From the NCBI GenBank assembly GCA_023246355.1, contig JAHFIQ010000001.1, positions 17,887 to 81,886 on the forward strand: a stretch of DNA of 64,000 nucleotides, in the 5' to 3' direction. The notes below the pieces were generated by a model. The model searched no databases and had not been told where the DNA came from. It was given only the letters and a program-made list of their open reading frames with translations. A program made the position numbers and the translations under genes. The DNA comes from Candidatus Uhrbacteria bacterium. GTDB taxonomy: Bacteria > Patescibacteriota > Patescibacteriia > UBA9934 > GWF2-40-263. Numbering within the stretch: the stretch's first letter is position 1; every line of letters starts with the position of its first letter. Shown here one piece after another: positions 2,971 to 63,692 of this stretch.

Positions 2971-2998
2971 CACAACCAAAAAACAGGGGCGAACCCTG
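2971..2998 (-). terminator. rho-independent terminator downstream of tsf (minus strand)
   Basis: On the minus strand: CAGGG-TTCGC-CCCTG hairpin followed by TTTTTTGG. Confidence 0.55.
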
Positions 2999-3138
2999 TT
3001 TCTTTTCTGATGGGACTGTTTCCAAATGCGATGAGACCTGCTTGAACGGGGAAGCCAGCCGCCGAGACGTAGTGAAAACTACGTTGAGGTGGTGGCGGGG
3101 CCCCGTGAAAGCAGGGATCGCGCATTTGGGAAGAGTCC

Positions 3139-3726
3139 CTAGATACTGAAGCGAGCAAACCGCCGTATCTGCATATTCTCTCCCAGACTGGCGATTTTGC
3201 TTTTTACAAATTCCTCAATGGTCACATCCTCGTCCTTGATGAACGGCTGTTCCAGAAGCACGACCTCAGAATACCATTTGTTGAGTTTCCCTTCGACGAT
3301 TTTCGCGATCACCTCAGAGGGTTTGCCTTGCCCTTCCATTTCAGCCGTATAAATTTCTTTTTCCTTTGTCACGATCTCCTCTGGCACATCCTGACGAGAG
3401 AGATACAAAGGATCCGCCGCACTCACATGCAAGGCCAGGTCATGACAAAAAGAAATGAACGCTTCGTTGCGCGCGACAAAATCTGTCTCACACAATACTT
3501 CGACCATGGCGCCGAGCTTTCCATTGGCATGGATATAGCTATGCACACGACCCTCGTGGGTTTCGCGGTCAGCTTTCTTGGCAGCCTTGGCCACGCCGCG
3601 CTCTCGCAAGAGAACAACCGCTTTCTCCACGTCCCCCGATGTTTCCTCCAGAGCTTTTTTGGCGTCCATCATGCCGGCCCCTGTTTGGGCGCGCAGATCG
3701 GCCACCTGTTTTGCATCAATGCTCAT
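3139..3726 (-). CDS. tsf: elongation factor Ts
   Basis: 195 aa; N-terminus ...LRAQTGAGMMDAKKAL; co-oriented with rpsB in the usual rpsB-tsf order. Confidence 0.9.
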   Translation of the reverse strand: MSIDAKQVADLRAQTGAGMMDAKKALEETSGDVEKAVVLLRERGVAKAAKKADRETHEGRVHSYIHANGKLGAMVEVLCETDFVARNEAFISFCHDLALHVSAADPLYLSRQDVPEEIVTKEKEIYTAEMEGQGKPSEVIAKIVEGKLNKWYSEVVLLEQPFIKDEDVTIEEFVKSKIASLGENMQIRRFARFSI

Positions 3727-4454
3727 ACGTCTGTGGTCTTCTTGGTCACGACTGCTGCCGCTTTCATGGCCTCAGCCTTCCCCTCCTTAATCGCCTCGCT
3801 GGCGAGCTTAGAAATCATCTCAATCGCTTTCACCGCGTCATCATTTCCTGGAATGACTTTTGTAATGGCCGCGGGGTTCACATTCGTGTCACACAGAGCG
3901 ATCACAGGAATGCCTGTCACCTCTGCTTCTTTCACCGCGGTCTTTTCTGTTTTTGTGTCGATCACGAACAGCGCATCAGGCGCTTTTGTGAGATGTTGGA
4001 TGCCGCCGAACTTGTGTTCCATGTCATCGATCTCACGGTTGATCATCAGCTGTTCCATCTTGGTATATTTTTTGAGTTCGCCTTTCTCGCGCTGATCTTT
4101 GAGCGTCTTCATGCGCTTGAGCGTTTGCTTGATCTGCCCAAAATTAGTGAGCGTGCCGCCCAGCCATCGGTTGATGACATAGGGCATCTCGCACGCGGTC
4201 GCAGACGTCTGGATCGATTCCTTTGCTTGGAGCTTGGTCCCAACAAACAGAATGACCCCACCACGCGCCGCAATGCCTTTCAAGGTTTGGAGCGCGTCAC
4301 GGAGCTGAGCTTGCGTTTCCTCAAGGTTAATAATGTGGACGCCTGCACGTTCTCCGAAGATGTATTTTTTCATCTTGGGATGCCAGCGAGACGTCTGATG
4401 GCCGAAGTGCATGCCGGTTTTCAGCATGTCGACCAAGGACGGAAGATTGGGCAT
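3723..4454 (-). CDS. rpsB: 30S ribosomal protein S2
   Basis: 243 aa; HFGHQTSRWNPKM-like N-terminus. Confidence 0.9.
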   Translation of the reverse strand: MPNLPSLVDMLKTGMHFGHQTSRWHPKMKKYIFGERAGVHIINLEETQAQLRDALQTLKGIAARGGVILFVGTKLQAKESIQTSATACEMPYVINRWLGGTLTNFGQIKQTLKRMKTLKDQREKGELKKYTKMEQLMINREIDDMEHKFGGIQHLTKAPDALFVIDTKTEKTAVKEAEVTGIPVIALCDTNVNPAAITKVIPGNDDAVKAIEMISKLASEAIKEGKAEAMKAAAVVTKKTTDV

Positions 4455-4587: not shown

Positions 4588-4616
4588 GGCTGATTCTGAT
4601 AGTGTCTTGGTGCCCA
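4588..4616 (+). promoter_or_regulatory. putative sigma70-like promoter (TTGACA-N14-TGaTAGTGT) directly upstream of ORF 4627
   Basis: TTGACA at ~4588. The block ATTCTGATAGT recurs at 24202 at the same spacing after a TTGACA. Its -10 ends ~10 nt before the ATG, so the transcript would be near-leaderless. Confidence 0.4.
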
Positions 4617-4626
4617 TAGGATTTCA

Positions 4627-4995
4627 ATGTATATCAGACTCATCGGGCTTCTTCCTCTCGTGTTGCTCCTCACTGGCTGTAATGACATCGTCATGTCTGC
4701 CCAGGAGGCTGGAGAAAACCCAAGCAAGATGCTGGGAGCGCTCGCAACATTCGGAACGAGCGTCGCTCTGTTGCTGTTCATCTTCAGCGAAAGAGGAATC
4801 TGGCGAACGATCCTGGATTCCATCATCGTCACAGGGATGGTGGCACTCATCTTCTCACCGTTCTTCTACACCACCGAGGAACCGGAACGCGCCTACATGC
4901 TGGCGGCTTCTGGCGGCATGGGAGTCGTTATCGGACTCCTGGTGAAACTCGTAGACGCGGTGGCAGGATGGCTCAGGAGGCTCGGGGAGACGTAA
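4627..4995 (+). CDS. hypothetical small lipoprotein/membrane protein
   Basis: 122 aa; signal peptide with lipobox LLTGC followed by hydrophobic helices. Confidence 0.5.
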   Translation: MYIRLIGLLPLVLLLTGCNDIVMSAQEAGENPSKMLGALATFGTSVALLLFIFSERGIWRTILDSIIVTGMVALIFSPFFYTTEEPERAYMLAASGGMGVVIGLLVKLVDAVAGWLRRLGET

Positions 4996-18329: not shown

Positions 18330-20160
18330 GGTAGAAAGCTTTGCCGAACGCGAGGTGTCGAGTTCGTCCTGAACGAATGATTCCCTGTTCGGCTCCTGAG
18401 TGACGAATCTGGTAGTGCTACAAAACGAATGAACAAGTGTCACTCTTCACTCGACGAGAGGTTCCATGTCGACCCAGTTCGACGAGGTCGACCTTGTCGA
18501 GTTCCAGTCTGACGTGGGTAGAAGTGCCTCATGGCGCTGCAATGTCTGTCAGACTTTATCAGGCGAACAACACGATGCCTTTACAGGCGTAGATCGCGGT
18601 GCCTGATTCTGTTGTGCGAGAAGTAGTTTGGCTTCGCGCCGTACCTCGGTATGCACGACTCCGATCGGACGAATCAACGGCTGTCTTCCAGCGACTTGCC
18701 CTCTGTCCGATCCAAGCTCGACGTAGCTTAGACTGTACAAAACGATCCAAGCGTTGTCGAGCAAACTGTGGACGTGTGCCTGGTTGTTTCCTACGAAGGC
18801 GTTCCTGTCCACTCAACTGCTGTACGATCCCGTGCCTGTCGAAAGACGAACCCACCGATGTACAGCACCGTCTGACGTCTATCGTGCTGACCGAGGTCGA
18901 CCAAGCCGATGTCAGACTCCCTATCGGACGACTACTACCTTGTCGAAAGACGGAGAAGAGTATGTCCAAATCTGTCGTGCGAATCCTTCGATGACCCTTG
19001 AGTCGAATCGGTCGTTGCACGACTCTTGCTGGACGATTGAACAGCTGCCTAATAGCGAGACATCGCGTGTCCAGCTTCCCGTGAACGATCACCGCAGTGC
19101 CTTCATGGCGAATGATCATGTGTTCAACACCGCTGCGCGAGTCAAGGTGTGTTGAAAGACGACTCCATGTCTGCGCAGCAACTCGAGTGACAAGCGATGG
19201 ACTGTTGAAAAACGATTCACCACGTGTCACTGACCCCATCGGGCGAAAGATGCAGTGGCGAGAGCCGCCGTGTGCTGTGCCTGATTGCAAGTGGACGAGA
19301 ACTACACTGCCCCTGGCTATCTGGCAGGTGTCAAGCCTCACTCGACGCAGGGCGACATGTCCAAACCCATCATTGAGATCAACTCGACTAGGATGGGCAA
19401 AGACGAAGTTCATGATGTCGAGTTTCCGTTGTGCGATCATCCGAATGACTTCGGTCGAAGCTACACTTGCACAACTCATGAGTGACGTATGAACGGCTGT
19501 TGAAAAACGCGTTGGCTAGTGTCACTCCTCCGCCCTTGGCTTCGGCCTTGGGTGTTTTATTTTGAACGACGTACTTGTGACCATATGGTCGAGAGTTCGT
19601 CACGTTCCAAATAGAGCGAAACATTGACATCTGTCCTCTTTCGGCGTAGTCATGAGGAGTCGGGCGTAGGAGATGTTGTTGAAAGACGACTGGTAGATGC
19701 CCGATTCTGCTGGACGATTTCGAGACTGCCATCTGGCGATCGTTGTGGTGTCCGGCTCCTGATGGACGAAGGTAGTCATGTCTTCGGACGATACTACACC
19801 TGTCCTTTTCCAGCTCGACGAATCATCCAGTGTTCACGGACGTGACGTACATTGTCGAGCCAACTCGTGGACGTGTGCCTGGTTGTTTCCAACGAAGGCG
19901 TTCCTGTCCGGTCTTGCCGAGCGAGGAGTAGCGTGTCGAAAGACGTAGGTCCATTTGCTCGGCCATCGAGTGAAGATTCGACTGATGTCGAAAGATGTTC
20001 CAGGGGATGTCACTCACTCCTTCGACGACCAGCCACGTGTCGCAAGACGATAGGCAAGGTGTCGAACAACTATCGGGCGAATCACGGACTGTCTCCGGAC
20101 GTCTGTAGAAGTGCCCGATTTCCAACCCTTGTCCCTTGGACGACCCAAGGGATTTTCTTT
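18330..20160. repeat. ORF-free ~1.8 kb region dense in degenerate short repeats centred on GACGA (TCGAAAGACGA / TGGACGA / TCGGACGA) and 43-60-nt diverged long repeats
   Basis: About 20 GACGA plus ~6 GACGT in 1.9 kb, against ~2 expected by chance. GUC-GAAA-GAC hairpins are frequent. 18768-18810 matches 19867-19909 at 42/43 nt, and the extended repeat is ~60 nt. The region is TA-depleted and CpG-rich, and no ORF has protein-like composition. Confidence 0.7.
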
Positions 20161-30762: not shown

Positions 30763-31268
30763 ATTCGATAGTGCAGCAACACACTCTGTTCATTGAGCTT
30801 GGTCACTTCGATCAAGCTCATTTGAATTCGATCAAACCCTTGGGCAAGTGGAATGCCGCTGCCAAACAAAATCGGCTCGATCGTGAGATACATGTCTGTC
30901 ACAAGTCCTGCTTGGAGAAACTGGCTATACACCGATGAACCACCACCAATGACAAGCTGGGTTACACCTTCTGATGCAAGATCCTGAACGAGATCTTTTG
31001 GATTTTGGTTTCTGAACTCCACCTCACCACCTTTTCCACCTAATCCACCTTTTCCACCCGTCTCACTGAGCACAATCAGCCTCCTTCCCTTCAGCGGCTT
31101 GCCAATGGTCTCAAACGTCCGGCGACCCATCACGACCACACCTGCTTCTTTTGTTTTGGCCACAAAAAAAGCCGTGTCTTCTTTTGACGTCCAATCAAGC
31201 GAACGTTGATTGGGAGACTGTGCAATCTTTCCGTCTGCGGAAATCGCGGCCACGAGAATCACCTTCAT
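30759..31268 (-). CDS. folA: dihydrofolate reductase family protein (DHFR/RibD_C-like) with in-frame GGKGGLGGKGG insertion
   Basis: MKVILVAAISADGKIA...VMGRRTFETIG...LIVLS; overlaps the thyA stop. The insertion is encoded by a TCCACCT 9-nt repeat. Confidence 0.7.
   Translation of the reverse strand: MKVILVAAISADGKIAQSPNQRSLDWTSKEDTAFFVAKTKEAGVVVMGRRTFETIGKPLKGRRLIVLSETGGKGGLGGKGGEVEFRNQNPKDLVQDLASEGVTQLVIGGGSSVYSQFLQAGLVTDMYLTIEPILFGSGIPLAQGFDRIQMSLIEVTKLNEQSVLLHYRI
31022..31059. repeat. TCCACCT micro-array, locus C, inserted in-frame inside folA
   Basis: caccaccttttccacctaatccaccttttccaccc on the plus strand encodes GGKGGLGGKGG on the minus strand. Confidence 0.7.
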
Positions 31269-32916: not shown

Positions 32917-33794
32917 CTATGCCAAAAATAATATCCATCGGCGAACTCATTGATGACTCCTGGGAGCTGTATCGCTCGCGATTTGTTGAGCTCATCACCA
33001 TTTCAGGTTGGCTCATCTTGACCGCGATTCTCTATGCGATCGCTCTGGCATTTTATCCAGCCGCGAGTACGCTTCAACTCTCTGGCGAACTCTCTGGCAC
33101 AGAAACCTTTGGGGTGATCCTGTTTTCCCTAACCACATTTGTGGTCACGCCGATCGTGAGTTTTTGGATTTACACATCACTGGCTAAAGCCGTGCACATG
33201 CATTTCGTGAGTAAAAAAATCGATCCCAAAAAAGCCATGCATGAAGGCAAGACGGTTTTCTTGCCAGCTCTTTTGACCTCTTTGATGGTACTGCTCATGA
33301 TTCTGCTCGCCATTGTCATCGGGTTTGCTCCTCCGGTTGTGCTTGCCACACTGGGATCTCTGACGCATGTCGGTGGGATCGTCACATTCGCGAACATCTT
33401 ACTCTTACTTGGCATCTTCGTGTCTCTGTTCCTGACGATTAAATGGACCGTCTACTACCTGCTCTCTCCCCTCTTAACCATTTTGAGTGGCGTCAAAGGC
33501 AAGGCCGCTCTGGAGGGCAGTCGTCGACTGATCGAAGGACGTTTCTGGTCCGTGCTCAGTCGTGTGGCCGTTCCCAAACTTGTGTTTGTGATCTTTGGTG
33601 TCTTTGCGATGTACCTTATCTCCTACGCGGTCGCGATTTTGGTAGACGCTTCCTCAGGACTCAATCTGGACATCCAACTGCGTGTGGCCACCATGCTCCA
33701 GACGATCGTCCCGATTTTGATTGCGACCTTGATCAATCCCCTTGTCATCATTTCAGATGTCCTCTTGTTGCGTTCACTTGAAGGAGAAACGTAG
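32910..33794 (+). CDS. hypothetical polytopic membrane protein
   Basis: 294 aa with ~6 TM helices; N-terminal motif ELIDDSWELYRSRF. Confidence 0.55.
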   Translation: MLTMPKIISIGELIDDSWELYRSRFVELITISGWLILTAILYAIALAFYPAASTLQLSGELSGTETFGVILFSLTTFVVTPIVSFWIYTSLAKAVHMHFVSKKIDPKKAMHEGKTVFLPALLTSLMVLLMILLAIVIGFAPPVVLATLGSLTHVGGIVTFANILLLLGIFVSLFLTIKWTVYYLLSPLLTILSGVKGKAALEGSRRLIEGRFWSVLSRVAVPKLVFVIFGVFAMYLISYAVAILVDASSGLNLDIQLRVATMLQTIVPILIATLINPLVIISDVLLLRSLEGET

Positions 33795-33798
33795 ACCT

Positions 33799-34545
33799 AT
33801 GCTCATGGAACCGTTCGAACTGTTGCACGAAAGCTGGAGTCTTTATCGAAAACACCTTTGGTCTTTGGTTGGTTACTCGGCGTGGATGCTCTTGCCTGTG
33901 GGCGCCCTTTTTTTGCTCACCTTTGCCCCAGATCATTGGCTGGTGTTTGTTGTGGCCATGCTCTGTACGCTTGTGGAAATCTATCTGGGACTCTGGATGA
34001 CCGTTGCTGTTGCCAGGTCCGTGACTCGCTTCTCACAAAAACAAGAAGTGAACCCAACGGCCATTTCTCATGAATCACTTCTGCGCATTCCTTCCCTCTT
34101 GCGAACCGCCATGCTCCAGGCCTTGGTCGTGATCGGTGGCTTACTTCTGTTTGTGATTCCAGGAATCGTCTTTACGGTTTGGTATGCGTTTGCGCAGTTG
34201 GCTACCGTGCTTGATGAGAAGCGCCCGATCGAAGCCTTGACCTTCAGTAAACTTTTGGTGAAGGGTCGATTCTGGGCTGTCGCCTGGCGTCTCACGAGTG
34301 TCCCCATTGTGATCGCTCTGATCTACGCGACAGTGATGGGACTGCTCGTCACCGCGTTTTCAACCTACACCGGAGCAGATCCTGAATTTCTGCTTGGAAC
34401 GGAAGGTCCATCATGGGTCCCACTTATGGATGCGATCGTTCAAGTCTTTCTGATCCCCTTCTTGTTGACCTATTCGGTTCTGCTCTTTCAGGACCTAAAA
34501 AAACATCCTGTGGAGCCTCTTGATAAAGGCTGCGACGTCGCGTAA
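33799..34545 (+). CDS. hypothetical polytopic membrane protein (paralog of the upstream gene)
   Basis: Internal Met MLMEPFELLHESWSLYRKH...; N-motif and topology match 32910..33794. Confidence 0.55.
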   Translation: MLMEPFELLHESWSLYRKHLWSLVGYSAWMLLPVGALFLLTFAPDHWLVFVVAMLCTLVEIYLGLWMTVAVARSVTRFSQKQEVNPTAISHESLLRIPSLLRTAMLQALVVIGGLLLFVIPGIVFTVWYAFAQLATVLDEKRPIEALTFSKLLVKGRFWAVAWRLTSVPIVIALIYATVMGLLVTAFSTYTGADPEFLLGTEGPSWVPLMDAIVQVFLIPFLLTYSVLLFQDLKKHPVEPLDKGCDVA

Positions 34546-34689
34546 CGTCTGGAGAGACCACTGCAAAGCTGCGTCTTTTCGTTTCACGGGCACCCGTCGA
34601 CCCCACTCTACGTAGAGAACCTACGTTTCGTGGGGCTCGACAGCCCGTTCAACGAAAATCCATCAGTTTTTCAGTGGTCTCTCACACAT

Positions 34690-40551: not shown

Positions 40552-40593
40552 ACAAAAAATCACCCTGCGTTTTATCGCAAGGTGATTTTTGTT
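40552..40593. terminator. bidirectional terminator between 40195..40551(+) and thrS(-)
   Basis: An A-run, then ATCACC(C)TGCG...CGCA(A)GGTGAT stem-loop, then a T-run. Confidence 0.55.
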
Positions 40594-43608: not shown

Positions 43609-43758
43609 TAACTTCTTGGAAAGAAAAATTCTGGTCGAATGGTCTGCCTGCCCGCCATCGGCCTGCGCCTCAGGCGCTGGCAGGCGGGGCGAGCCCCACA
43701 GAATGTTTGCGTGGGGTCGGACAGACCTGAGACCAGAATTTTTCTTTCCAAGAAGTTA
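43609..43758. repeat. palindromic intergenic element copy 1 (28-bp perfect inverted arms + conserved 48-nt core)
   Basis: Arms TAACTTCTTGGAAAGAAAAATTCTGGTC / GACCAGAATTTTTCTTTCCAAGAAGTTA. Core ...GGCGAGCCCCACAGAATGTTTGCGTGGGGTCGGACAGACCTGA. The right arm ends on the dnaE stop codon. Confidence 0.8.
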
Positions 43759-47295: not shown

Positions 47296-47330
47296 AAAAA
47301 CAGCTCCGACGCAACGTCGGAGCTGTTTTG
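47296..47330. terminator. bidirectional hairpin terminator (ACAGCTCCGACG-CAA-CGTCGGAGCTGT flanked by A-run and T-run)
   Basis: Perfect 12-bp stem between an A-run and a T-run; it terminates the minus-strand gene 47332..47631. Confidence 0.6.
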
Positions 47331-47649: not shown

Positions 47650-50067
47650 TTATGATCTCATTGTAGCACCAAACTCTTTTGTGAGCACGTGGCGGATCTT
47701 TTCAATCTCACGATCTACTTCTTGTGAAGTGAGCGTTCGCTCTGCCGAGCGGAACGAGAGATGAATCGCCACGGATTTTTTGCCTTCTTCAATCCCTTTT
47801 CCCTGGAAGACATCAAAGAGCTCGACATGAACAAGGAGTGACGATGCCGCACGCACCGCTGCCTCCAGAGCCCCGTAGGCTGTCCGTGCCTCTACGACAA
47901 ATGCCACATCACGCTTGGCATCAGGAAATAGTGGGATGGGTGTAAAAGTCTGTCCTGCGCGAGCTCGCTGTGTGAGTTCTGTGACATTCAACTCACAGAC
48001 GGCCACACGATCCATTCCCAAACTCTTTGCTGCAGGGGCATCCACCTCAGCGACAACGCCAATCTTTTTTCCGCTCACAAGGATATCCGCGCATCTGGCC
48101 GGGTGCATCCAAGATGCAGGAGGCGTTGGAGTAAACTCAACGGCACATCCCTCTTGCGAGAGAAGATCATGCATCATCGTTCGAACATGCACAAACGGGG
48201 ACTCATCCCCATGAGCCGAATACGCCACCGCTAAGTGATACGGCTGCAAAGGCAAACGACCTTTTTGCCCGTCTTCGTCACCTTTCCTTTCCCCAAAAAA
48301 TACGCGATCGATTTCAAACAAGGATACGTTTGGAAACGAATGCTGATTCATGGCCACGGCTTCCAAAAGATTTGGCAGCAGCGAACGGACTAGATACGGA
48401 CGATCAGAGGCAAGAGGATTCGCGAGTTTCAAATGCTCTTTTGGATCGAAACCAAGCGCAGCGAGCGTCTGGGGAGACACGAACGCGTACCGATAGACTT
48501 CTGTTGAGGCGAGCTCTGAGGCAAGCGTATGCCGCAGTCGACGGGAGAGTAAACGCACTGGATCTTGGACAGGCGGTGCGATCGAAAAGGATGGCAGCGA
48601 GGAGACGATGCGATCGTATCCCCAAATACGCGCCACTTCTTCGATCAAGTCTTCTTTGATCGAAACGTCTTTTGTGGCACGCCAAGATGGAATGGTGACG
48701 CTCAGGTGTTTTGCTTTTGTTTTCACAGTGAATCCAAGCCTAGACAGGATATCGGTTATCTCTTTTGTAGAAATCTCCACGCCAAGAAATCCACTCACGT
48801 CTGATACTGAAAGCGAAAGAATCACCGGCTTTGGCTTTCGAGGAAACACGTCAACGATCTTGGATGCGACTCGAGCACCAGGACAGAGTTTTGACATGAG
48901 CTCAACCGCGCGAGAAAGCGCCAAGGCACACAGCTCAGGATCCAAGGACTTCTCAAAACGCGCTGAGGACTCAGAACGCAGTCCTAACTTCATGGAAGTC
49001 TTGCGCACACTCACCGGCGAAAAATTTGCCGATTCAAACACGATGCGAGTCGTCTTCTCGCTCACGCCACTGCCCTCACCTCCCATCACTCCTGCAATCG
49101 CCATGGGCTTTTCACGGTTGGCGATCAGAAGCATCTCCGTGCTCAGCTGATAGGTTTTCTCATCTAGCGCCGTAATCTTTTCTTTTGGTTTGGCTGAGCG
49201 GACAACAATGCTCTCACCCAACACATCCGCATCAAACGCGTGCATGGGCTGACCGAGTTCGAGCATCACCGCATTGGTCACGTCCACGACATTGTTGATC
49301 GATCGCACACCGCAAGACGACAATCGTACTCGCAACCACTCAGGTGATGGAGCGACCGTGATCCCGTCCATCGCAAGAGCCATATAACGCGGGCAGAGTC
49401 CTGGCTCATCGATCACAACAGAGAGATTGATCCCTTTACCTGGCTTCAATCGTTGTAGACGAGAGGATACAAGAGGAATGCGATACAACGCGGCCACTTC
49501 GCGTGCCATGCCATAGTGTCCCATCAGATCAGGACGGTTGGTAAGAGACTTATGCTCGATATCAAACACAACATCATCCCGACCAAGTGCTTTTGAGAGT
49601 GGTGTTCCTGCCTTGTCCGAAATTGCACTGAGATCCATGATCTCGTGTTCGCCTTCGCTGCTCTTTTCAATCCCGATTTCGATCCCAGCACAAATCATGC
49701 CCTCACTTTTTTCCCCACGAATCTTCGTAGGTGCTAGCTCTACCAACTCACCTTCCCCATGCCATTTCACTCGAGCGCCCGGCAACGCCACCGCGACCTT
49801 CATGCCTTCTGCCACATTCGTGCCTCCGCAAACAATCTGCGTTTCTCGTGAACCAACATCCACGCGACATAACTTCAGTCGATCAGCGTTTGGGTGGAGC
49901 AAGACGGCCTTCACAACTCCCACGACCATCTTATCCATGGCCTGTGCTTGATCGATCACCTTCTCGACTTCCACCGTAGAAAGCGTAATCCTCTTGGCCA
50001 AATCAAAATCTGAGACCCCTTTGGGGAGCTTCACAAACTCTGACAGCCATTTTTTTGAAATCAACAT
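47650..50067 (-). CDS. pheT: phenylalanyl-tRNA synthetase beta subunit
   Basis: Start set at the internal Met MLISKKWLSEFVKLP.... The upstream extension in the track ORF is translation of the palindromic element. B3/4, B5 and FDX domains are present. Confidence 0.9.
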   Translation of the reverse strand: MLISKKWLSEFVKLPKGVSDFDLAKRITLSTVEVEKVIDQAQAMDKMVVGVVKAVLLHPNADRLKLCRVDVGSRETQIVCGGTNVAEGMKVAVALPGARVKWHGEGELVELAPTKIRGEKSEGMICAGIEIGIEKSSEGEHEIMDLSAISDKAGTPLSKALGRDDVVFDIEHKSLTNRPDLMGHYGMAREVAALYRIPLVSSRLQRLKPGKGINLSVVIDEPGLCPRYMALAMDGITVAPSPEWLRVRLSSCGVRSINNVVDVTNAVMLELGQPMHAFDADVLGESIVVRSAKPKEKITALDEKTYQLSTEMLLIANREKPMAIAGVMGGEGSGVSEKTTRIVFESANFSPVSVRKTSMKLGLRSESSARFEKSLDPELCALALSRAVELMSKLCPGARVASKIVDVFPRKPKPVILSLSVSDVSGFLGVEISTKEITDILSRLGFTVKTKAKHLSVTIPSWRATKDVSIKEDLIEEVARIWGYDRIVSSLPSFSIAPPVQDPVRLLSRRLRHTLASELASTEVYRYAFVSPQTLAALGFDPKEHLKLANPLASDRPYLVRSLLPNLLEAVAMNQHSFPNVSLFEIDRVFFGERKGDEDGQKGRLPLQPYHLAVAYSAHGDESPFVHVRTMMHDLLSQEGCAVEFTPTPPASWMHPARCADILVSGKKIGVVAEVDAPAAKSLGMDRVAVCELNVTELTQRARAGQTFTPIPLFPDAKRDVAFVVEARTAYGALEAAVRAASSLLVHVELFDVFQGKGIEEGKKSVAIHLSFRSAERTLTSQEVDREIEKIRHVLTKEFGATMRS

Positions 50068-50079
50068 AGTGAGATGTTT

Positions 50080-50188
50080 GATCTGTGCAAAACGATGCCT
50101 GTTCTCCTCAGGACCTGTCCGACCCCACACAAACATTCTGTGGGGCTCGCCAGGCCGTTCGTCGAACATTCATCGTTTTGCACAGATC
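50080..50188. repeat. palindromic intergenic element copy 2 (18-bp perfect arms; core in reverse orientation)
   Basis: Arms GATCTGTGCAAAACGATG / CATCGTTTTGCACAGATC; the core is the reverse complement of the core of copies 1 and 3. Fills the pheS-pheT spacer, and its right arm overlaps the pheS stop. Confidence 0.8.
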
Positions 50189-51215
50189 AAAATTGATTCA
50201 AGAAACGCAGGTCGCCACTTTCAAAAAGTCGAATATCGTCAATGCCATACTTGAGCATCACCAAGCGCATGAGTCCAAACCCAAACGCAAATCCGGAATG
50301 CGTCTGAGGATCTACTCCCCCCTCGCGCAACACGTTTGGATGGATCATGCCAGCTCCAAACACTTCGAGCCAACCGGATTTCTTACACAATCGACACCCA
50401 TCGCCCTTGCAAAGATAACACGTGACTTCGCCATTCACACCTGGCTCAACGAATGGATAAAATTTGGGACGTAGACGGATCTTCGTCTCTTGCCCATAGA
50501 GATGTTTCCCCACGGCCTCCAGCACCCCCTTCAAATGCGCAAACGAAATGCCGCGGTCAACGACCACACCTTCAATCTGATGCAAGGTATGTTCGTGGCG
50601 GACATCGGTCGCTTCGTTTCGAAAGCAACGTCCAGGAACAATCATCCGAAGTGGCACGCCATACTCTCGCATGCCGCGGATTTGCACCGGCGAGGTATGC
50701 GTTCGCATCACTACTCCCTCATGACCTTTCACATAAAACGTATCCTGCATATCGCGAGCTGGATGGGTTGGAGGGATGTTGAGCGCCGTAAAGTTAAAAA
50801 AATCACTTTCCATTTGCGGGCCGTCAGCCACAATAAACCCCATCGACGTAAACAAATCCTCAAGGTCCTCCCGCACCTGCGTAATCGGATGCAGATGTCC
50901 TTTTGGATGTGACGTCATCTCTGGCTGTGTGACATCGATCCACTCCCCTGAAGCCTTCGATGCCAAGGAAGCCTTCGATGCCATTTCGATTGCCTCCGCG
51001 TACGCCGTTTCGATCGCCTCCTTGACTTCGTTCACCATCGCCCCCACCAGCTTGCGCTCCTCCTGTGCCAAACTCGCCATGTCTTTCATGGCCGCATTCA
51101 GCTTTCCACGGCGACCCAAAAATTCTGTCTTGAGTTGTTCAAGTGCATCGCGATCTGTCACCTTCGCCACAAGATGCAAAAAATCTTTTTTGACGTGTTG
51201 AAGCTGCTCCTTCAT
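50187..51215 (-). CDS. pheS: phenylalanyl-tRNA synthetase alpha subunit
   Basis: 342 aa with class II motifs and the PheS-specific region. Confidence 0.9.
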   Translation of the reverse strand: MKEQLQHVKKDFLHLVAKVTDRDALEQLKTEFLGRRGKLNAAMKDMASLAQEERKLVGAMVNEVKEAIETAYAEAIEMASKASLASKASGEWIDVTQPEMTSHPKGHLHPITQVREDLEDLFTSMGFIVADGPQMESDFFNFTALNIPPTHPARDMQDTFYVKGHEGVVMRTHTSPVQIRGMREYGVPLRMIVPGRCFRNEATDVRHEHTLHQIEGVVVDRGISFAHLKGVLEAVGKHLYGQETKIRLRPKFYPFVEPGVNGEVTCYLCKGDGCRLCKKSGWLEVFGAGMIHPNVLREGGVDPQTHSGFAFGFGLMRLVMLKYGIDDIRLFESGDLRFLNQF

Positions 51216-53535: not shown

Positions 53536-54375
53536 TTACTTCCCCAATCGTTTTTTATCTTCAGATTTTTGTAGATAATTCTTCTTTGAGACGACAGAAC
53601 GACCAAGGCGTTTCTCCAGATTCTTTCTTGCCCCTCCAGCGATATCTCCACCAGCCTTAGCGTCCGCACGCAATTTCTTTACCCCTTTTGAATCTTCTGT
53701 ACGGTGAATTTCCGTTGTCGCTCGCTCACCAAGCATGTTGAAAATAAGTTCAAAGTCATCCATGTGATCACGTAGGTTTTCCCGCTTGAGACCTTTGAGT
53801 TTTTTATACTCACTTGGCGTAACGCCAAACGTGGCTTTGGAAATTTCCGCAGTCAAAATTTCATAATCTTGTCGATCTTTCGCCCCTCGATTTTTCCATT
53901 CTTCCGTAAGCTCCTCACGAATAACAATGCCACGCATTCTTTTTTCTATCCAGTCTTCATTGTAGCCCTTAAGTTTGTAGAGCATCCTCGTCCTTTTTGT
54001 GGCCAGCTCTGGATTTTCAATTTCCTGCACTCGTTCATATCCAACCTTTGCCAACCAACGCTTAAAAGGTTCGGCTTTGGGGGATGGAATCGACTGAATG
54101 AGACGAAAAATACCTTCTGTGTCAGCACAGTCGGTTTCGTACTTTTTGCCGTCTGATGCTTCCAGTTTCAGTTGTCTACAAATTGTAGACAACTGAAACT
54201 GGCTTTCATCATGAACCCTAGCTTTCATCGCCGTCCAGTACTTACTGGGTTGAGAACTGTCTGTCAGTGCTTCAATAACATCCACAACCGAAAACCACCA
54301 CTCCCCCTGATGGAGCGTCCTTCGAATTTTCTTTCCCTTAAACAGGGCAATTTTTTGGATGTTCGTTGAATCCAT
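53536..54375 (-). CDS. Bro-N domain / DinD-like (DNA damage-inducible protein D family) protein
   Basis: 279 aa; the N-terminal Bro-N-like region and the C-terminal region resemble DinD. Confidence 0.55.
   Translation of the reverse strand: MDSTNIQKIALFKGKKIRRTLHQGEWWFSVVDVIEALTDSSQPSKYWTAMKARVHDESQFQLSTICRQLKLEASDGKKYETDCADTEGIFRLIQSIPSPKAEPFKRWLAKVGYERVQEIENPELATKRTRMLYKLKGYNEDWIEKRMRGIVIREELTEEWKNRGAKDRQDYEILTAEISKATFGVTPSEYKKLKGLKRENLRDHMDDFELIFNMLGERATTEIHRTEDSKGVKKLRADAKAGGDIAGGARKNLEKRLGRSVVSKKNYLQKSEDKKRLGK
54162..54202. repeat. 41-nt perfect palindrome (20-bp arms) inside the DinD-like CDS
   Basis: CCAGTTTCAGTTGTCTACAA-A-TTGTAGACAACTGAAACTGG; encodes ...QFQLSTICRQLKLE.... Confidence 0.8.
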
Positions 54376-55877: not shown

Positions 55878-56759
55878 ATGTACTCCCAAATCGACGCCAA
55901 CAAACGCAAGACCTGGCTGCTCATTTCACTCTTTACAATTGTGATCGTGGGATTGGGTTGGTTCTTTGGTGAATACACAGGCGCTGGCAACGTCGGCATT
56001 ATCGTGGCTGTGCTTCTGGCAACGTTCATGAACCTGACGGGATACTTCTGGGGCGACAAGGTGGCGCTCGCGTCCTCAGGCTCAAAAGAAATTCAAAAAA
56101 CGGACAACCCACGTCTCTACCGCATGGTGGAAAACCTCGCCATCACCTCGGGCATGGCCATGCCAAAAGTCTATGTGATGAACGATCCCTCTGCCAACGC
56201 CTTTGCCACAGGACGGGATCCGGAACACGCTTCTGTCTCGGTGACCACAGGGCTTTTGGACATCATGGACGACAATGAATTGGAAGGCGTCCTTGCCCAC
56301 GAACTGTCACATGTTAAAAACTACGACATCCGCGTGATGACCATCGTCATCGTGCTCGTGGGTATCGTGCTGCTCCTCTCGGATATTCTGATGCGCACCA
56401 TGTTCTGGGGTGGTCGCGATCGCGACAATCGTGGAGGCGGCATCCTCTTGATCATTGGGCTCGTGCTGGCGATCCTGTCTCCGTTTTTTGCCGAGCTCAT
56501 CAAACTCGCTGTCTCACGCTCTCGTGAATACTTGGCCGATGCCTCTGGCGCCATGCTCACGCGCTATCCGGAAGGCTTGGCAAAGGCGCTTGAAAAAATT
56601 GCCCTTCATGATCGTCCTCTTAAACGCGCCAACCACGCCACGGCCCATCTGTTCCTCGCCAATCCCTTCGATCCTCATGTCACAAAAAAGTTTGAACAGC
56701 TGTTTTCCACACATCCACCGATCGAGGAGAGGATTGCGAAGTTGAGAACGATGATATAA
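55878..56759 (+). CDS. htpX: protease HtpX (M48 zinc metalloprotease)
   Basis: HELSHV zinc motif; 4 TM helices; the lemA-htpX pairing. Confidence 0.85.
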   Translation: MYSQIDANKRKTWLLISLFTIVIVGLGWFFGEYTGAGNVGIIVAVLLATFMNLTGYFWGDKVALASSGSKEIQKTDNPRLYRMVENLAITSGMAMPKVYVMNDPSANAFATGRDPEHASVSVTTGLLDIMDDNELEGVLAHELSHVKNYDIRVMTIVIVLVGIVLLLSDILMRTMFWGGRDRDNRGGGILLIIGLVLAILSPFFAELIKLAVSRSREYLADASGAMLTRYPEGLAKALEKIALHDRPLKRANHATAHLFLANPFDPHVTKKFEQLFSTHPPIEERIAKLRTMI

Positions 56760-56855
56760 AGGTGGAATAGGTGGACAAGGTAGACAAGGTGATCCCCGAC
56801 TCCGAACTCCGAGCACCTTTTCCACCACATCCACCTTCCCACCTCTTCCACCTTC
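56760..56855. repeat. TCCACCT micro-array, locus D (AGGTGGA arm then CCACCT x4 ending 3 nt before the clpC ATG)
   Basis: aggtggaataggtggacaaggtagacaaggtga ... ttttccaccacatccaccttcccacctcttccacctt. Confidence 0.75.
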
Positions 56856-59510: not shown

Positions 59511-61712
59511 ATGGGAAAGGAGGCACAGCAACAGGTCATGGATCAGGCTCAAGCAAGACGCCAGGAAACATTCATGGCGGGGCTTATTGCAGGCATGAAA
59601 AAAGACCCAAGCTCCAGAGGTGCTCTCATGGCACTGGGTCGAACAGGCATTGGTTCTGCGATCATCGACCTCACTCCGTTTTTGGGAGGCATCAAACAAA
59701 TCAACGAAAGCATTGACGGCGAACGAACCACTGGAGAAAAACTCAGTGGAAAAAAACGGATCATTCATGGTCTGGTAGGCGCAGGAAGCCTGGTATTGGA
59801 TTTCACAGGAATAGGAGAAGGGGTAGAACTGCTGAAAGTTGGTGGAAAATCTGTCGGGCTTGTGAAAGGCGTTGCTTCTAAACTCGCGGGTCGAGGTGCA
59901 ACCAAGTCTGCTGCGCTTTTTGAAAAATCAGCCGCCTTCATGGTGAAAAACCCTGAGCTCGTCGCGGCAGGAGAAAAAGCCGCACAGAATCACATCGATG
60001 ACGCCATCCGGTATACCAGCAAAGCTTCCAAAAGCGATGCGCGCAAAACACTCAAAGAGGAAGCTTCTAAACACCTACCACCAGAAATAGCTGGTGCTCT
60101 GATTGATGCAGGGGAAGCCAAACTCAGAGGATCTGTCTTCCCTTCTGGTGGCCAAACATCGCCCACAAGCAGTCCACTGAATTTGGAATCCGCGCGCAAA
60201 GCGGCATTGACAGCGAGACGTGTGCAAAGCTTTGCACAGCAGGCGCCTGCTGTATCCGCACAGACACTCTTTTCAGAATCCTCTCAAAATCAGATAAGCG
60301 TGAGCGCACAAAAACAAGAGGCACCGAGCGATCAAACGCAGACGACGGAGAGTGTGACAAAACAGGAGATCATGGAAAAAGCGCAGAGCGGGCGTGTCAA
60401 AACATTTCTGGCTGCCAGAGCAAAAGGCACAGTCATGTCAGTCGTGTCTGGTGGAACGTGGTTCATTGTAAAAAGAGTAGGTCAAAATAAGGTTGCCTCT
60501 GCCGTCATGGATCTCGTGCCATTTTTGGGAGGAATCAAACAACTAAGCGAAGCCGTCGATGGAAAGACAACCACAGGTGAAAAACTCGTCGGAAAAAAAA
60601 GGATCATTCATGGTCTTGTGGGCGTCGTGAGTTTCGGATTGGATTTCACGGGTGTTGGAGAGGTGGCCGAGGTGGTAAAAGGAGCTCGCATCGCCGGAAA
60701 ATCAACGGGATTCATGACGCGTTCAGCTGGGGTACTCAGTGCACGCGGCGCAACGAAGTCTGCGGCATTAGCAGAAAAATCTGCAGCTTTCATGGCACGC
60801 AATCCAGAGTTAGTCAAAGCGGCCGAAAACGTTGCTGAAAAACACCTAGACGATGGAATCAAGTATGTTCGTACTGCTTCCAAAAGTGATGCGCGTAAGA
60901 CCCTCAAAGAGGAAGCTTCCAAGTTCATGCCTCCGGCCGTTGCCGAAATCATCGTTCAAGCAGGTGAAGCAAAAATGAGAGGGGCTCCCATTCCTTCTAT
61001 CTCTGATTCCGCTCGCAAGGCCGCACTCAGTGCCGCAAGAGGATCCAAACCTTTACAGATGCCCGCCCATCAGCAACTTCGCATTCCACCAACTCCACGT
61101 GCACGTGACGAAGAGGAAGAGGAACAAGAAGCGCAAGAACAGGAACAGGCAGTGCTCTACGAGCAGGCACTTCTGAGCCACCTGATCCAATCTAAACGCA
61201 GCAAAGAGACAGAAGATGATGAAGAAGAGAAAAAAACGCTCGCACAAAAAGGCAAACGTGCTGCCGTGCGGTATGTCTTTAAACAGGCGATGCGACGCGG
61301 ATTTATTTTTCTGCTTGACTTTATCGCTGCAGCGTGCGACCTCTCGAGTGCGGGCATATCGTTTGTCATCGACATCTTCATCTACGCCTTCACGCTCGGT
61401 TACTTGAACCTAGAAATGATCTATGGAAGATGGATCGCGAAAGGCAAAAGTAAAATTATCTCTCCGACTTCCTGGTTTCCGATTCCCATGGTCGTTGATC
61501 CAGAGGCGATTATTCTACAAAGTTTCATCATAAGCATGGATATTGCTTTAGGAGTCGCTGTGGTCGTCATGGGAGCTGGTGGCATGTGCATCTTGCATGA
61601 TTACGTGACGCTTGTCTCAGATCCGGTAGCCGTAGGGACAGCCTTGGCGTCTGGCAACGTCGGAGATATGTGCTTGGGTGGTATAATGTCACTAGTCATC
61701 AATGGCATATGA
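59511..61712 (+). CDS. large hypothetical protein (733 aa) with an internal ~190-aa tandem duplication and a C-terminal multi-TM region
   Basis: Repeat 1 (~res 35-225) and repeat 2 (~res 305-500) share ...DLxPFLGGIKQ...TTGEKLxGKKRIIHGLVG...RGATKSAAL.EKSAAFM..NPELV...SKSDARKTLKEEASK.... Confidence 0.6.
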   Translation: MGKEAQQQVMDQAQARRQETFMAGLIAGMKKDPSSRGALMALGRTGIGSAIIDLTPFLGGIKQINESIDGERTTGEKLSGKKRIIHGLVGAGSLVLDFTGIGEGVELLKVGGKSVGLVKGVASKLAGRGATKSAALFEKSAAFMVKNPELVAAGEKAAQNHIDDAIRYTSKASKSDARKTLKEEASKHLPPEIAGALIDAGEAKLRGSVFPSGGQTSPTSSPLNLESARKAALTARRVQSFAQQAPAVSAQTLFSESSQNQISVSAQKQEAPSDQTQTTESVTKQEIMEKAQSGRVKTFLAARAKGTVMSVVSGGTWFIVKRVGQNKVASAVMDLVPFLGGIKQLSEAVDGKTTTGEKLVGKKRIIHGLVGVVSFGLDFTGVGEVAEVVKGARIAGKSTGFMTRSAGVLSARGATKSAALAEKSAAFMARNPELVKAAENVAEKHLDDGIKYVRTASKSDARKTLKEEASKFMPPAVAEIIVQAGEAKMRGAPIPSISDSARKAALSAARGSKPLQMPAHQQLRIPPTPRARDEEEEEQEAQEQEQAVLYEQALLSHLIQSKRSKETEDDEEEKKTLAQKGKRAAVRYVFKQAMRRGFIFLLDFIAAACDLSSAGISFVIDIFIYAFTLGYLNLEMIYGRWIAKGKSKIISPTSWFPIPMVVDPEAIILQSFIISMDIALGVAVVVMGAGGMCILHDYVTLVSDPVAVGTALASGNVGDMCLGGIMSLVINGI

Positions 61713-62926
61713 GTGAGCGCACAAAAAAACTTCTGCTGGTTGGAGGATTTATTCTGTCCGTTTTTCTCATTGCCTTCGTTCTCTATAAACTTTTTTTCAA
61801 AGGAATCGTGCCTGAAGCAAGCGTTGAACCGACCGTAGAAGCTCCTGGTGAACTTCCGACCTCAGGCGAAGGCGCTCCGGGTGTGACCACAGAAGAACCA
61901 ACCGGAACAACAGGACTCCAAGAAGCCGACGAGGTCGCCCATGGCGGACTGACCCAGACCGTGGAACTCACGACCGGCGCTGTCTACAACGCGGTGTTGA
62001 GTGGTGATGGATCAAGCATCAACTACTACAATGCCAGCGACGGACGTTTTTATACCATCAACGCCGATGGCGAAGTCGTCGCACTTTCTGACAAACAATT
62101 TCCCGAAGCCGAAAACGTCGAATGGAACAAGGATTCTGAAAAGGCCTTAATCGAATTTCCAGACGGAAGCAACATCATCTATGACTTCAGTGCGGAAAAA
62201 CAAGTCACCCTTCCCAATCACTGGGAGGACTTTGATTTCTCCCCGACGTCGGACGAAATCATTGGCAAAAGCGTGGCTCTGGATGAAAGCAATCGCTTCT
62301 TGGTGATTGCCAGCGACGACGGTTCCCAAGTCCAGGCGATTGCCGAGCTTGGAGAAAATGAAGATAAGGTCGACATCAACTGGTCGCCAAACGACCAAGT
62401 GGTTGCCTTTGCCAACACGGCTAGCTCAAGCTCCAGCGGAGTGGATCGCCACGTCATCTATCCTGTTGGCAAAAACCAAGAAAACTACAAAGGCTTAGTT
62501 GTCGAAGGTCTCAACTTTGATTCCCTCTGGTCCCCCAACGGGAAACAACTCCTCTACTCAGTGGCGGGCGACTATAGCGACAACAAGCCACTCCTATGGA
62601 TCGTCGATGCCACCGCTTCCACGATGGGAGACAACCGATCGAGTCTTGGACTCAATACCTGGGTGGATAAATGCTCCTGGTCTTCTGCCTCGACGGTCTA
62701 CTGTGCTGTGCCCATTGACCTGCCAGCAAACGCTGGTCTGCAGCGTTCCTTGTATCAGGATCTCCCCGACGCGTTGTACAAACTTGACCTCACCAGCAAC
62801 TCGGCTCGACTCATTGCCATTCCTGAGGAGGAGACATCCATGAGCGACCTTTGGGTGTCTGATGATGAATCGATGCTGTATTTCACCAACACAAGCGGAC
62901 AGTTGGAACTTCTCAAATTAAAATAG
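61709..62926 (+). CDS. membrane-anchored beta-propeller protein (TolB/PD40-like repeats)
   Basis: Start set at MSERTKKLLLVGGFILSVFLIAF (ATGA overlap with the upstream stop); WSPNG/NWSPND repeats. Confidence 0.55.
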   Translation: MSERTKKLLLVGGFILSVFLIAFVLYKLFFKGIVPEASVEPTVEAPGELPTSGEGAPGVTTEEPTGTTGLQEADEVAHGGLTQTVELTTGAVYNAVLSGDGSSINYYNASDGRFYTINADGEVVALSDKQFPEAENVEWNKDSEKALIEFPDGSNIIYDFSAEKQVTLPNHWEDFDFSPTSDEIIGKSVALDESNRFLVIASDDGSQVQAIAELGENEDKVDINWSPNDQVVAFANTASSSSSGVDRHVIYPVGKNQENYKGLVVEGLNFDSLWSPNGKQLLYSVAGDYSDNKPLLWIVDATASTMGDNRSSLGLNTWVDKCSWSSASTVYCAVPIDLPANAGLQRSLYQDLPDALYKLDLTSNSARLIAIPEEETSMSDLWVSDDESMLYFTNTSGQLELLKLK

Positions 62927-62927
62927 G

Positions 62928-63033
62928 TTCTTCTTCAAAAGTTATTTTTTTGTCGAAAGGGCTGGCGAGCCCCACAGAATGTTTGTGTGGGGTCGGACAG
63001 ACCTGAGACGAAAAAATAACTTTTGAAGAAGAA
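62928..63033. repeat. palindromic intergenic element copy 3 (27-bp near-perfect arms + conserved core)
   Basis: Arms TTCTTCTTCAAAAGTTATTTTTTTGTC / GACGAAAAAATAACTTTTGAAGAAGAA. Core GGCTGGCGAGCCCCACAGAATGTTTGTGTGGGGTCGGACAGACCTGA. Fills the spacer 62927-63041. Confidence 0.8.
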
Positions 63034-63041
63034 CCCATCGT

Positions 63042-63692
63042 ATGTCCCATCGCTGGCTTACATTTTTATCGATCACGGTTCTAGGAATCATTGTCTTTAT
63101 TTTTTTTGGACTTCGCCTTCGACCGATTGAAATCCCAAGAATCGAAACAACGGCTGTGGTTGGTTCCCAAACCGAACCGACCGTCACCTTTGTGAATCCC
63201 TCCAAGGGAGCCAAAGACGCAGCCGTGACCCTGGTGGTCTTTTCTGACTTTCAGTGCGATGCGTGCGCCTCACTCGCTGACTCACTAGACGTCATCCTAA
63301 AAACCTATCCCGATGACGTACGACTCGTTTGGAAAAACCTCCCCAATGAATCTCTCCATCCCCTGGCCACCCCTGCTGCCATTGCGGCACACTGCGCCGC
63401 AGAGCAAGGGAAATTTTGGGAATATCACGATGAACTTTTTCAGAAACAGGCCTACCTCTCAGAATCCATCTTCACCCAAATCGCCAGCTCGATAGGACTG
63501 GATGTCGAGAGCTTTCAGTCGTGTTATGACCAGCGTGACACGCTTCCGATCGTCACAAAAGACTATGAAGAAGGCTTAGCGCTGGGTCTTACCTCCACTC
63601 CTTCCCTCTACATTGGGAATCAGCTCCTGATCGGTGCTCTGGATGTCCAGGAACTCCTCTCGGTTGTTGAAGAGCAGCTGAGCGCACCGTAG
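63042..63692 (+). CDS. DsbA-family thiol:disulfide oxidoreductase
   Basis: N-terminal TM helix; thioredoxin fold with CDAC active site (FSDFQCDAC). Confidence 0.7.
   Translation: MSHRWLTFLSITVLGIIVFIFFGLRLRPIEIPRIETTAVVGSQTEPTVTFVNPSKGAKDAAVTLVVFSDFQCDACASLADSLDVILKTYPDDVRLVWKNLPNESLHPLATPAAIAAHCAAEQGKFWEYHDELFQKQAYLSESIFTQIASSIGLDVESFQSCYDQRDTLPIVTKDYEEGLALGLTSTPSLYIGNQLLIGALDVQELLSVVEEQLSAP

Follow-up and report, generated by a model that had tools for sequence, protein, structure and literature searches.

Correia elements of Neisseria (CREE or NEMIS) are about 100-150 bp long, carry terminal inverted repeats of about 26 bp and fold over their whole length into a long hairpin. They lie beside or between genes in either orientation, are co-transcribed, contain no ORF and differ in presence or absence between relatives; their repeats are conserved in sequence and are accompanied by a TA duplication. 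REP sequences, with the BIME and REPIN-RAYT systems (IS200/IS605-like Y1), are imperfect palindromes of 20-40 nt with a 5' GTAG, found just past stop codons in hundreds of copies and often as inverted pairs. In classical MITEs (IS630/Tc1-type, IS5-type and others) the terminal repeats are those of the parent IS, the interior varies and insertion creates direct target duplications. Integron attC sites are conserved in the R''/R' boxes (RYYYAAC / GTTRRRY), which lie at the stem base, and form cassette arrays beside intI. ERIC (IRU) sequences and Rickettsia palindromic elements (RPE), likewise imperfect palindromes, measure about 100-150 bp and occur in transcribed parts of genomes both compact and ordinary; their copies are alignable along their whole length. 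CPR bacteria (Patescibacteria) have very small, densely packed genomes, in which repeats and mobile DNA are usually said to be scarce.

The DNA analysed here, called the window below, is a stretch of 64,000 nucleotides (64 kb) from a Candidatus Uhrbacteria bacterium, and homologues of its PheS and EF-Ts likewise assign it to Candidatus Uhrbacteria, within the Patescibacteria (CPR). The spacer between pheS and pheT in this window is occupied by a long palindrome, c2, which belongs to an undescribed small family that is narrowly distributed (Candidatus Uhrbacteria) and unusual among bacterial repeats; such elements were not found described in CPR bacteria in a literature search. The features of c2 are as follows.

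50077-50191, minus strand: complete element c2 in the pheS-pheT spacer, recognised by its palindrome, its fold, the covariance model and the empty site in relatives.
50171-50191, minus strand: 5' arm in RNA orientation, UUUGAUCUGUGCAAAACGAUG, containing the pheS stop UGA.
50098-50170, minus strand: interior, with a degenerate inner stem that has purine-purine mismatches beside the arm, followed by the conserved core.
50077-50097, minus strand: 3' arm, CAUCGUUUUGCACAGAUCAAA, ending 9 nt before the pheT start codon.
50065-50067, minus strand: true pheT start codon, with an N-terminus (MLISKKW...) that matches relatives.

Element c2 is an imperfect palindrome of 115 nt with its core on the minus strand, that is, in the sense orientation of the pheS-pheT operon, as the first-pass annotation of this DNA had stated. 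The 18-nt arms GATCTGTGCAAAACGATG and CATCGTTTTGCACAGATC were located exactly at 50080-50097 and 50171-50188, and two matches to the 18-nt arm were found vs 0.11 expected by chance. Pairing runs on to 21 bp (TTTGATC...GATCAAA, 50077-50097 with 50171-50191), giving a perfect outer stem (21/21). The pheS stop codon TGA (50187-50189, minus strand) lies wholly within this extended stem and overlaps the 18-nt arm by the 2 nt reported in the first-pass annotation; the pheT ATG is 12 nt past the 18-nt arm (given as 13 nt there) and 9 nt past the extended stem. When folded as RNA, the minus strand of c2 reached -71.1 kcal/mol (z = -10.8, with 0 of 200 shuffles as stable) and the plus strand -61.9 kcal/mol, while the values for single-stranded DNA were -41 and -38.5 kcal/mol. 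The core of c2 reads GAAC / GGCCUG / G-CGA-G / CCCCACA-loop-UGUGGGG / UCG-GA / CAGGUC / CUGA. No ORF was confined to the element.

Public gene calls start pheT at an in-frame ATG at 50134-50136, within the core loop of c2 (also at L020 11080), and so predict an 828-aa product carrying 23 spurious residues compared with the true start at 50067. The start inside the core loop is an artefact of the insertion, and elements of this kind misguide gene callers, as public annotations begin pheT within the element. RPEs can likewise be read in frame. The elements also break assemblies: the public contig L022 ends inside c2, since assemblies break at repeats.

The core of c2 had been noticed before, as its reverse complement, at 43.6 kb and 62.9 kb, and this was confirmed: the interior of c2 is 93% identical to 43683-43724 and 92% identical to 62949-63000 in reverse complement, the core strand being minus in c2 and plus in these two copies (c1 and c3). 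A covariance model built from five copies recovered copies at E = 1e-11 to 5e-27, with a score of 80.6 bits (E = 2e-22) for c2, and a search with the model found a fourth copy, c4, on the minus strand at about 34551-34683 (38.4 bits, E = 6e-9). A divergent relative at 3012-3139, c5, was found by an inverted-repeat search and by reading of the sequence. The model did not detect c5, which is nevertheless probably a family member, judging from its GAAC...GUGA junction, an apical ACGTAG/CTACGT hairpin as in c4 and an arm motif like that of c2 and c4. The other copies are listed below.

43609-43758, plus strand: c1, with perfect arms of 28 bp and, besides the core, an additional internal hairpin; it follows the dnaE stop directly and is antisense to dnaE.
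62923-63038, plus strand: c3, with 29-bp arms (perfect part 62926-63035), in sense orientation.
34551-34683, minus strand: c4, with partly irregular arms and the apical ACGTAG/CTACGT hairpin, in antisense orientation.
3012-3139, plus strand: c5, probable member, abutting the tsf stop upstream of the tsf terminator, in antisense orientation.
L008 2358-2474 and L009 3652-3768: homologous copies in Candidatus Uhrbacteria MAGs, with arms that differ from those of the window copies.

The two MAG copies came from a pattern scan of 185,579 species-representative genomes, which gave two real and eight chance matches, so that true homologues were present in two Candidatus Uhrbacteria MAGs only. A viral scan gave chance matches only, two metagenome scans gave no matches or chance ones only, and no further copies were present in the 10 kb past either window end or in about 95 kb from relatives. 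The family as known comprises seven copies from about 0.3 Mb of Uhrbacteria DNA read, namely at least four and probably five in 64 kb (a density of 4-5 per 84 kb) and the two in other Uhrbacteria MAGs. The window sequence is metagenome-derived, and this is all that speaks for c2 as a chance palindrome or an assembly artefact. Such an origin is scarcely credible, given that c2 is present in independent assemblies from several samples, that fold z-scores among the copies range from -9 to -14 with 0 of 200 shuffles as stable, that covariance model E-values go down to 5e-27, and that homologues occur in two NCBI MAGs.

Read in one orientation, the core-bearing copies all have the order outer stem - GAAY - GGUCUG - G-CGA-G - CCCCAC - variable loop - GUGGGG - UCG-GA - CAGACC - UGA - outer stem. 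Within this asymmetric core of about 50 nt, P3 (CCCCAC:GUGGGG) was invariant and P2 (GGUCUG:CAGACC) showed one compensatory change, in c2, and the unpaired junction bases (GAAY, UGA, G and GA) were invariant across genomes. Extra hairpins are located between P2 and GCGAG in c1 and in the apical loop in c4 and c5. The whole element is 110-150 nt long, and its arms of 20-30 bp are almost purely Watson-Crick within each copy; counted outward from the junction, Watson-Crick pairs numbered 28/28 in c1, 28 plus one U.G in c3 and 29/30 in L009.

Between copies the arms are about 50-65% alike, that is, 35-50% divergent, so that an end agrees much more closely with the opposite end of its own copy than with those of other copies. 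The 18-21-nt arm sequence is peculiar to c2, and what the copies have in common is the core and a loose arm pattern: a terminal motif resembling GA-CTTCTGCAAAAG, a stretch of 7-10 bp made of A/T only, and GTY as the triplet ahead of GAAY. Covariation was pronounced, as 9 of the 10 innermost arm pairs changed on both sides, with two to four Watson-Crick pair types per arm position and 94.5% of cells paired, a level reached in 0 of 500 shuffles. Tandem purine-purine mismatches recur at identical arm positions in c2, c4 and c5, which make up a subgroup. The family thus combines an asymmetric centre that is conserved with ends that evolve quickly and in concert, the opposite of a classical MITE.

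A second long hairpin was found in the L008 MAG at 231-410. Its 20-bp arms (AGTTCAGCAAGATAGAGCTT) resemble those of the L008 family copy and enclose a different, branched interior of 140 nt, for which a local E-value search gave no credible Rfam match. This hairpin hints at modularity, with arms and interiors able to enter different combinations.

The sites of the elements were compared with those of relatives. The pheS-pheT gap is 1-2 nt in L024, L025 and L026, and relatives with 89% and 79% identical PheS read TTTTAG-AT-ATG and TTTTAG-T-ATG at the pheS stop and pheT ATG, whereas the window genome has about 120 extra nt including both arms and a TGA stop in place of TAG. Downstream of dnaE, relative L025 has a 23-nt spacer with a TATACT box, and the window genome retains this spacer with 144 nt added directly after the TAA. 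Downstream of tsf, the element is absent from L047, L050 and L051, and relatives with 89-94% identical EF-Ts run straight to the terminator; in the window genome c5 stands between the tsf stop and that terminator. The site of c3, at the DsbA-like gene, is a 2-nt gap in a JGI relative, as judged by gene coordinates. Because pheS and pheT are only 1-2 nt apart in relatives, the whole element including both arms is a lineage-specific insertion, and so are the copies that follow dnaE and tsf and the one ahead of the DsbA-like gene.

The empty sites in relatives contain neither arm. An origin of the arms as inverted copies of the local flank was rejected on this ground, and it is also unlikely that the core landed in a pre-existing hairpin. 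When the flanks of all seven copies were compared, no consistent target-site duplication was found; only c1 can be read as TA...TA, so that a TA target duplication of the IS630-like type fits c1 only.

In L049, whose EF-Ts is 91% identical, a different insert of about 125 nt lies between the tsf stop and the terminator (4088-4215). It holds a CTGCCCG...GGCAGGCGGG segment that resembles the extra hairpin of c1, and was rejected as the same element since it is not a hairpin (z = -0.8).

The distance from the preceding stop codon to the start of the element is 0-7 nt in all seven copies: 0 nt or an overlap in c1, c2, c3, c5 and the L008 copy, 5 nt in c4 and 7 nt in the L009 copy. In the operon-internal copies, 0-5 nt separate the stop from the stem, and 6-9 nt the stem from the next ATG. 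Besides c2, these are c3, which follows the stop of ORF 61670-62926 and precedes the DsbA-like ORF with its ATG at 63042, and c4, which is separated by 5 nt from the stop of ORF 33742-34545 on one side and by 6 nt from the gatB ATG at 34690 on the other. Since the spacers available to c1 and c5 are much longer than the position used, placement at the stop codon looks like a preference, through targeting or survival, and not the result of short spacers alone. The abutted stop codons include TAA, TAG and TGA, and a SECIS or recoding hairpin was rejected for this reason.

With respect to the gene at whose stop they lie, c2, c3 and the L009 copy are sense and c1, c4, c5 and the L008 copy antisense (3 vs 4). 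The orientations reported in the first-pass annotation (antisense at dnaE, sense at c2 and at 62.9 kb) were correct, and the mixture persists with seven copies. Along the window the orientation alternates (+, -, +, -, +) and thus follows neither transcription nor a single replication direction. From the mixed orientation it had been argued that a strictly strand-specific RNA function was improbable. The mixture itself stands; it is compatible with an RNA role, since both strands of a palindrome this close to perfect can fold.

A hairpin of such high stability just behind a stop codon, with T-runs inside the 3' arm in some copies (c1 and L009), could in principle act as an intrinsic, possibly bidirectional, terminator or as an attenuator between pheS and pheT. 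For c2 this is very improbable. The stem is followed by AACATCTCACT in the sense direction and by ATTGATTCAAG in the antisense direction, with no T-tract after it on either strand, and a scan of 49800-50500 found no terminator-like site. A terminator would moreover stand inside an essential two-subunit operon without a separate pheT promoter, c5 lies upstream of a separate canonical tsf terminator, and ordinary terminators of the window are hairpins of 15-18 bp followed by T-runs (e.g. 47297-47329).

Our preferred reading, which we hold to be rather likely, is a non-autonomous mobile palindromic element of the REP / MITE / Correia-like kind that is mobilised in trans through recognition of its core. 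A mobile DNA palindrome is favoured because of the mixed orientation, the nearly pure Watson-Crick arms, the insertion polymorphism and the lack of a flanking promoter. Against it speak the conserved centre with variable ends, the lack of a consistent target-site duplication, the small number of known copies (seven), the viral and metagenome scans without a real match and the more stable fold of the core strand, which would suit a strand-specific RNA as well; the mechanism that would keep the arms complementary is at the stage of a proposal. The DNA-level element suggested in the first-pass annotation, for example a hairpin substrate of recombination or transposition, gains from the empty sites, the mixed orientation and the arm mismatches, which are transitions on either strand; the enzyme it would need has no counterpart nearby. 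No transposase, RAYT (Y1_Tnp, PF01797) or recombinase was found among the ORFs of the 64-kb window or the Pfam matches of the neighbouring 10 kb beyond each end, together about 10% of the genome, and the flanking genes are ordinary housekeeping genes (gyrB, ftsW, nusG, rplK, rplA, thyA, gatB, miaA, miaB, dnaE, pheST, tyrS and clpB).

Compared with the systems described above, the family is like Correia elements in size, in the hairpin formed from terminal repeats, in its dispersal in either orientation, in its presumed co-transcription with neighbours, in the lack of an ORF and in the differences of presence or absence between relatives. It differs in that the arms diverge by 35-50% in place of a conserved 26-bp terminal repeat, while the centre is conserved, in that the TA duplication is inconsistent, and in having a far lower copy number and a CPR bacterium as host. 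The MITE traits found were short length without an ORF, complementary ends of 20-30 bp, multiple copies and empty sites in relatives, with presence/absence differences for c1, c2, c3 and c5. In contrast to MITEs, the family shows no direct target-site duplication and no terminal repeats conserved among copies, and the window has no IS that could be a parent; its conservation is the inverse of theirs. REP and RAYT systems resemble it as non-coding imperfect palindromes just past stops, in either orientation and without target duplication, with asymmetric hairpin irregularities that tell the strands apart and a trans-acting enzyme that is presumed. The family members, however, are single hairpins of 110-150 nt in low copy number, without GTAG and without inverted doublets. 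ERIC and RPE share the size, the imperfect palindrome and the transcribed location, but no sequence similarity; a preference for abutting stop codons and co-evolving arms are, to our knowledge, not described for them.

The absence of a target-site duplication bears on another possibility, in which the element is the target of a site-specific recombinase that works on single-stranded DNA in folded form, as in attC, IS200/IS605 or RAYT systems, and not a transposon-derived MITE. The imperfect hairpin has conserved extrahelical or unpaired bases that would mark one strand, its structure is more conserved than its arm sequence, and it is stable as ssDNA, all of which are attC-like properties. This origin is nonetheless quite doubtful. 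The element is not an attC site, since its conserved bases are in the centre, whereas the attC R boxes are basal; the copies are dispersed singletons amid housekeeping genes and do not form cassette arrays, the window contains no IntI (or other integrase), Y1 or HUH gene, the GTAG conserved in REP sequences is lacking, and orientation alternates within 64 kb, showing no correlation with replication direction.

The main rival to a mobile element is a structured cis-acting RNA module on mRNAs, in which a long double-stranded stem would carry a protein-binding core made of internal loops of the tandem G.A type (GAAY/UGA) and a bulged G. Such a module could be a site of RNase III processing, stabilise 3' ends or couple translation; it would have spread by duplication and now be kept by selection. 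We regard this as unlikely. The core strand folds better than its complement in six of the seven copies, by 0.7 to 24.6 kcal/mol (24.6 in c5), and this gives a weak hint that one particular single strand, RNA or ssDNA, may be the active form; the energy difference is partly built into the shared core. In c5, four G.U pairs are on the core strand and none on the other, but across all copies the count is roughly 9 vs 4, which is not significant, and mismatches occur on both strands. An RNA module would also fit the junction nucleotides, invariant across genomes while the paired arms covary, and the spacing of the three operon copies between the stop and the next ATG. Against it, four of the seven copies are antisense to the abutted gene, so that the core strand would not be transcribed with that gene, and the flanks have no conserved promoter. 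The arms are almost purely Watson-Crick, while selected RNA helices usually tolerate many G.U pairs, and the empty sites in close relatives mean that the host does not need the element.

No Rfam family matched either: Rfam 15 gave no matches at gathering thresholds over the whole window, and a local E-value search around c2 returned only microRNA-precursor noise far below threshold. Several known RNA motifs, namely the hammerhead (CUGAUGA...GAAA), k-turn or box C/D, sarcin-ricin and group II domain V, were rejected by eye, as the GAAY/UGA and G-CGA-G/UCG-GA junctions fit none of them; at most, the junctions fit tandem sheared G.A pairs. Arms that act as phage-derived spacers in an shRNA-like guide were rejected because the arms of different copies are alignable and have motifs in common, and TIGR arrays are not applicable, being tandem arrays and not dispersed single hairpins.

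Under the preferred reading of a mobile element, a transposase or recombinase encoded elsewhere in the genome would recognise the conserved asymmetric core in trans, probably acting on a folded single strand or a cruciform. The arms may stay matched through a requirement for closure, if only tightly closed hairpins are propagated or tolerated. After insertion, c2 would be co-transcribed with pheS-pheT, judging from its position and the absence of a terminator or promoter, and would form a hairpin of about -70 kcal/mol in the transcript. The base of its stem would bring the pheS stop near the pheT start, which is probably why insertions at such positions are tolerated, and could conceivably preserve the termination-reinitiation coupling given by the 1-2-nt spacer in relatives.

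A more specific and distinctly improbable proposal takes the element for a self-templating hairpin transposon. The mobile form would be a single folded strand, of DNA or of RNA copied to DNA, made up of the core and one arm; at each transposition snap-back synthesis would restore the second arm, or the first arm would serve to correct it. New copies would be targeted to the position right after a stop, or be tolerated nowhere else; there the closed stem would hold the stop and the next start together. If true, it would account for arms that are 35-50% divergent between copies and yet near-perfectly complementary within a copy, and the closed stem would preserve termination-reinitiation coupling in a genome with 1-2-nt spacers.

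Hairpins of 110-150 nt have recently colonised the 1-2-nt gaps of essential, translationally coupled genes (pheS-pheT, ORF-gatB and ORF-dsbA), and CPR genomes do tolerate selfish or semi-domesticated palindromes. It is unusual for a conserved centre to be flanked by co-evolving ends, and for all copies to be placed just behind stop codons; with complete genomes and transcriptomes, the family would lend itself to study of how the arms of a palindrome stay matched and how an operon remains expressed despite an insertion of -70 kcal/mol. Its importance lies mainly in the genome biology and annotation of CPR bacteria and is moderate rather than major.

Other repeats and hairpins were observed in and around the window. 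A second family of intergenic palindromic repeats, with 9-nt periodic units (GGTGGAWNA / ACCTTTTCCACCTATTCC), is located at 22095-22128, 26654-26783, 31020-31062 and 56759-56854, and in relative L050 at 4588-4668; related GGCTACAAGG-type palindromes are located at L049 2688-2762 and L050 9180-9261. Three 47-nt units bounded by GAGTGAC...GTGTCACT lie at 18398-19526, where the local ORFs are without Pfam matches, and a 43-nt repeat is present at 18768 and 19867 in two copies with 98% identity, in a region whose ORFs also lack Pfam matches. Short hairpins followed by T-runs at 47297-47329, 24149-24186, 40555-40590 and 2979-3006 are likely intrinsic terminators, far shorter than the family elements. 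At 54162-54202 there is a perfect 20-bp palindrome with a 1-nt loop and without the family core, within a Bro-N-domain ORF (53536-54375, minus strand). Just past the right window end, recG is called as two adjacent ORFs (243 or 236 aa, and 435 aa; L041 14157-16201 and L042 8241-10285), and T4SS-like genes (TraG, TraC and pilin) are located near the split recG of L041 and L042.
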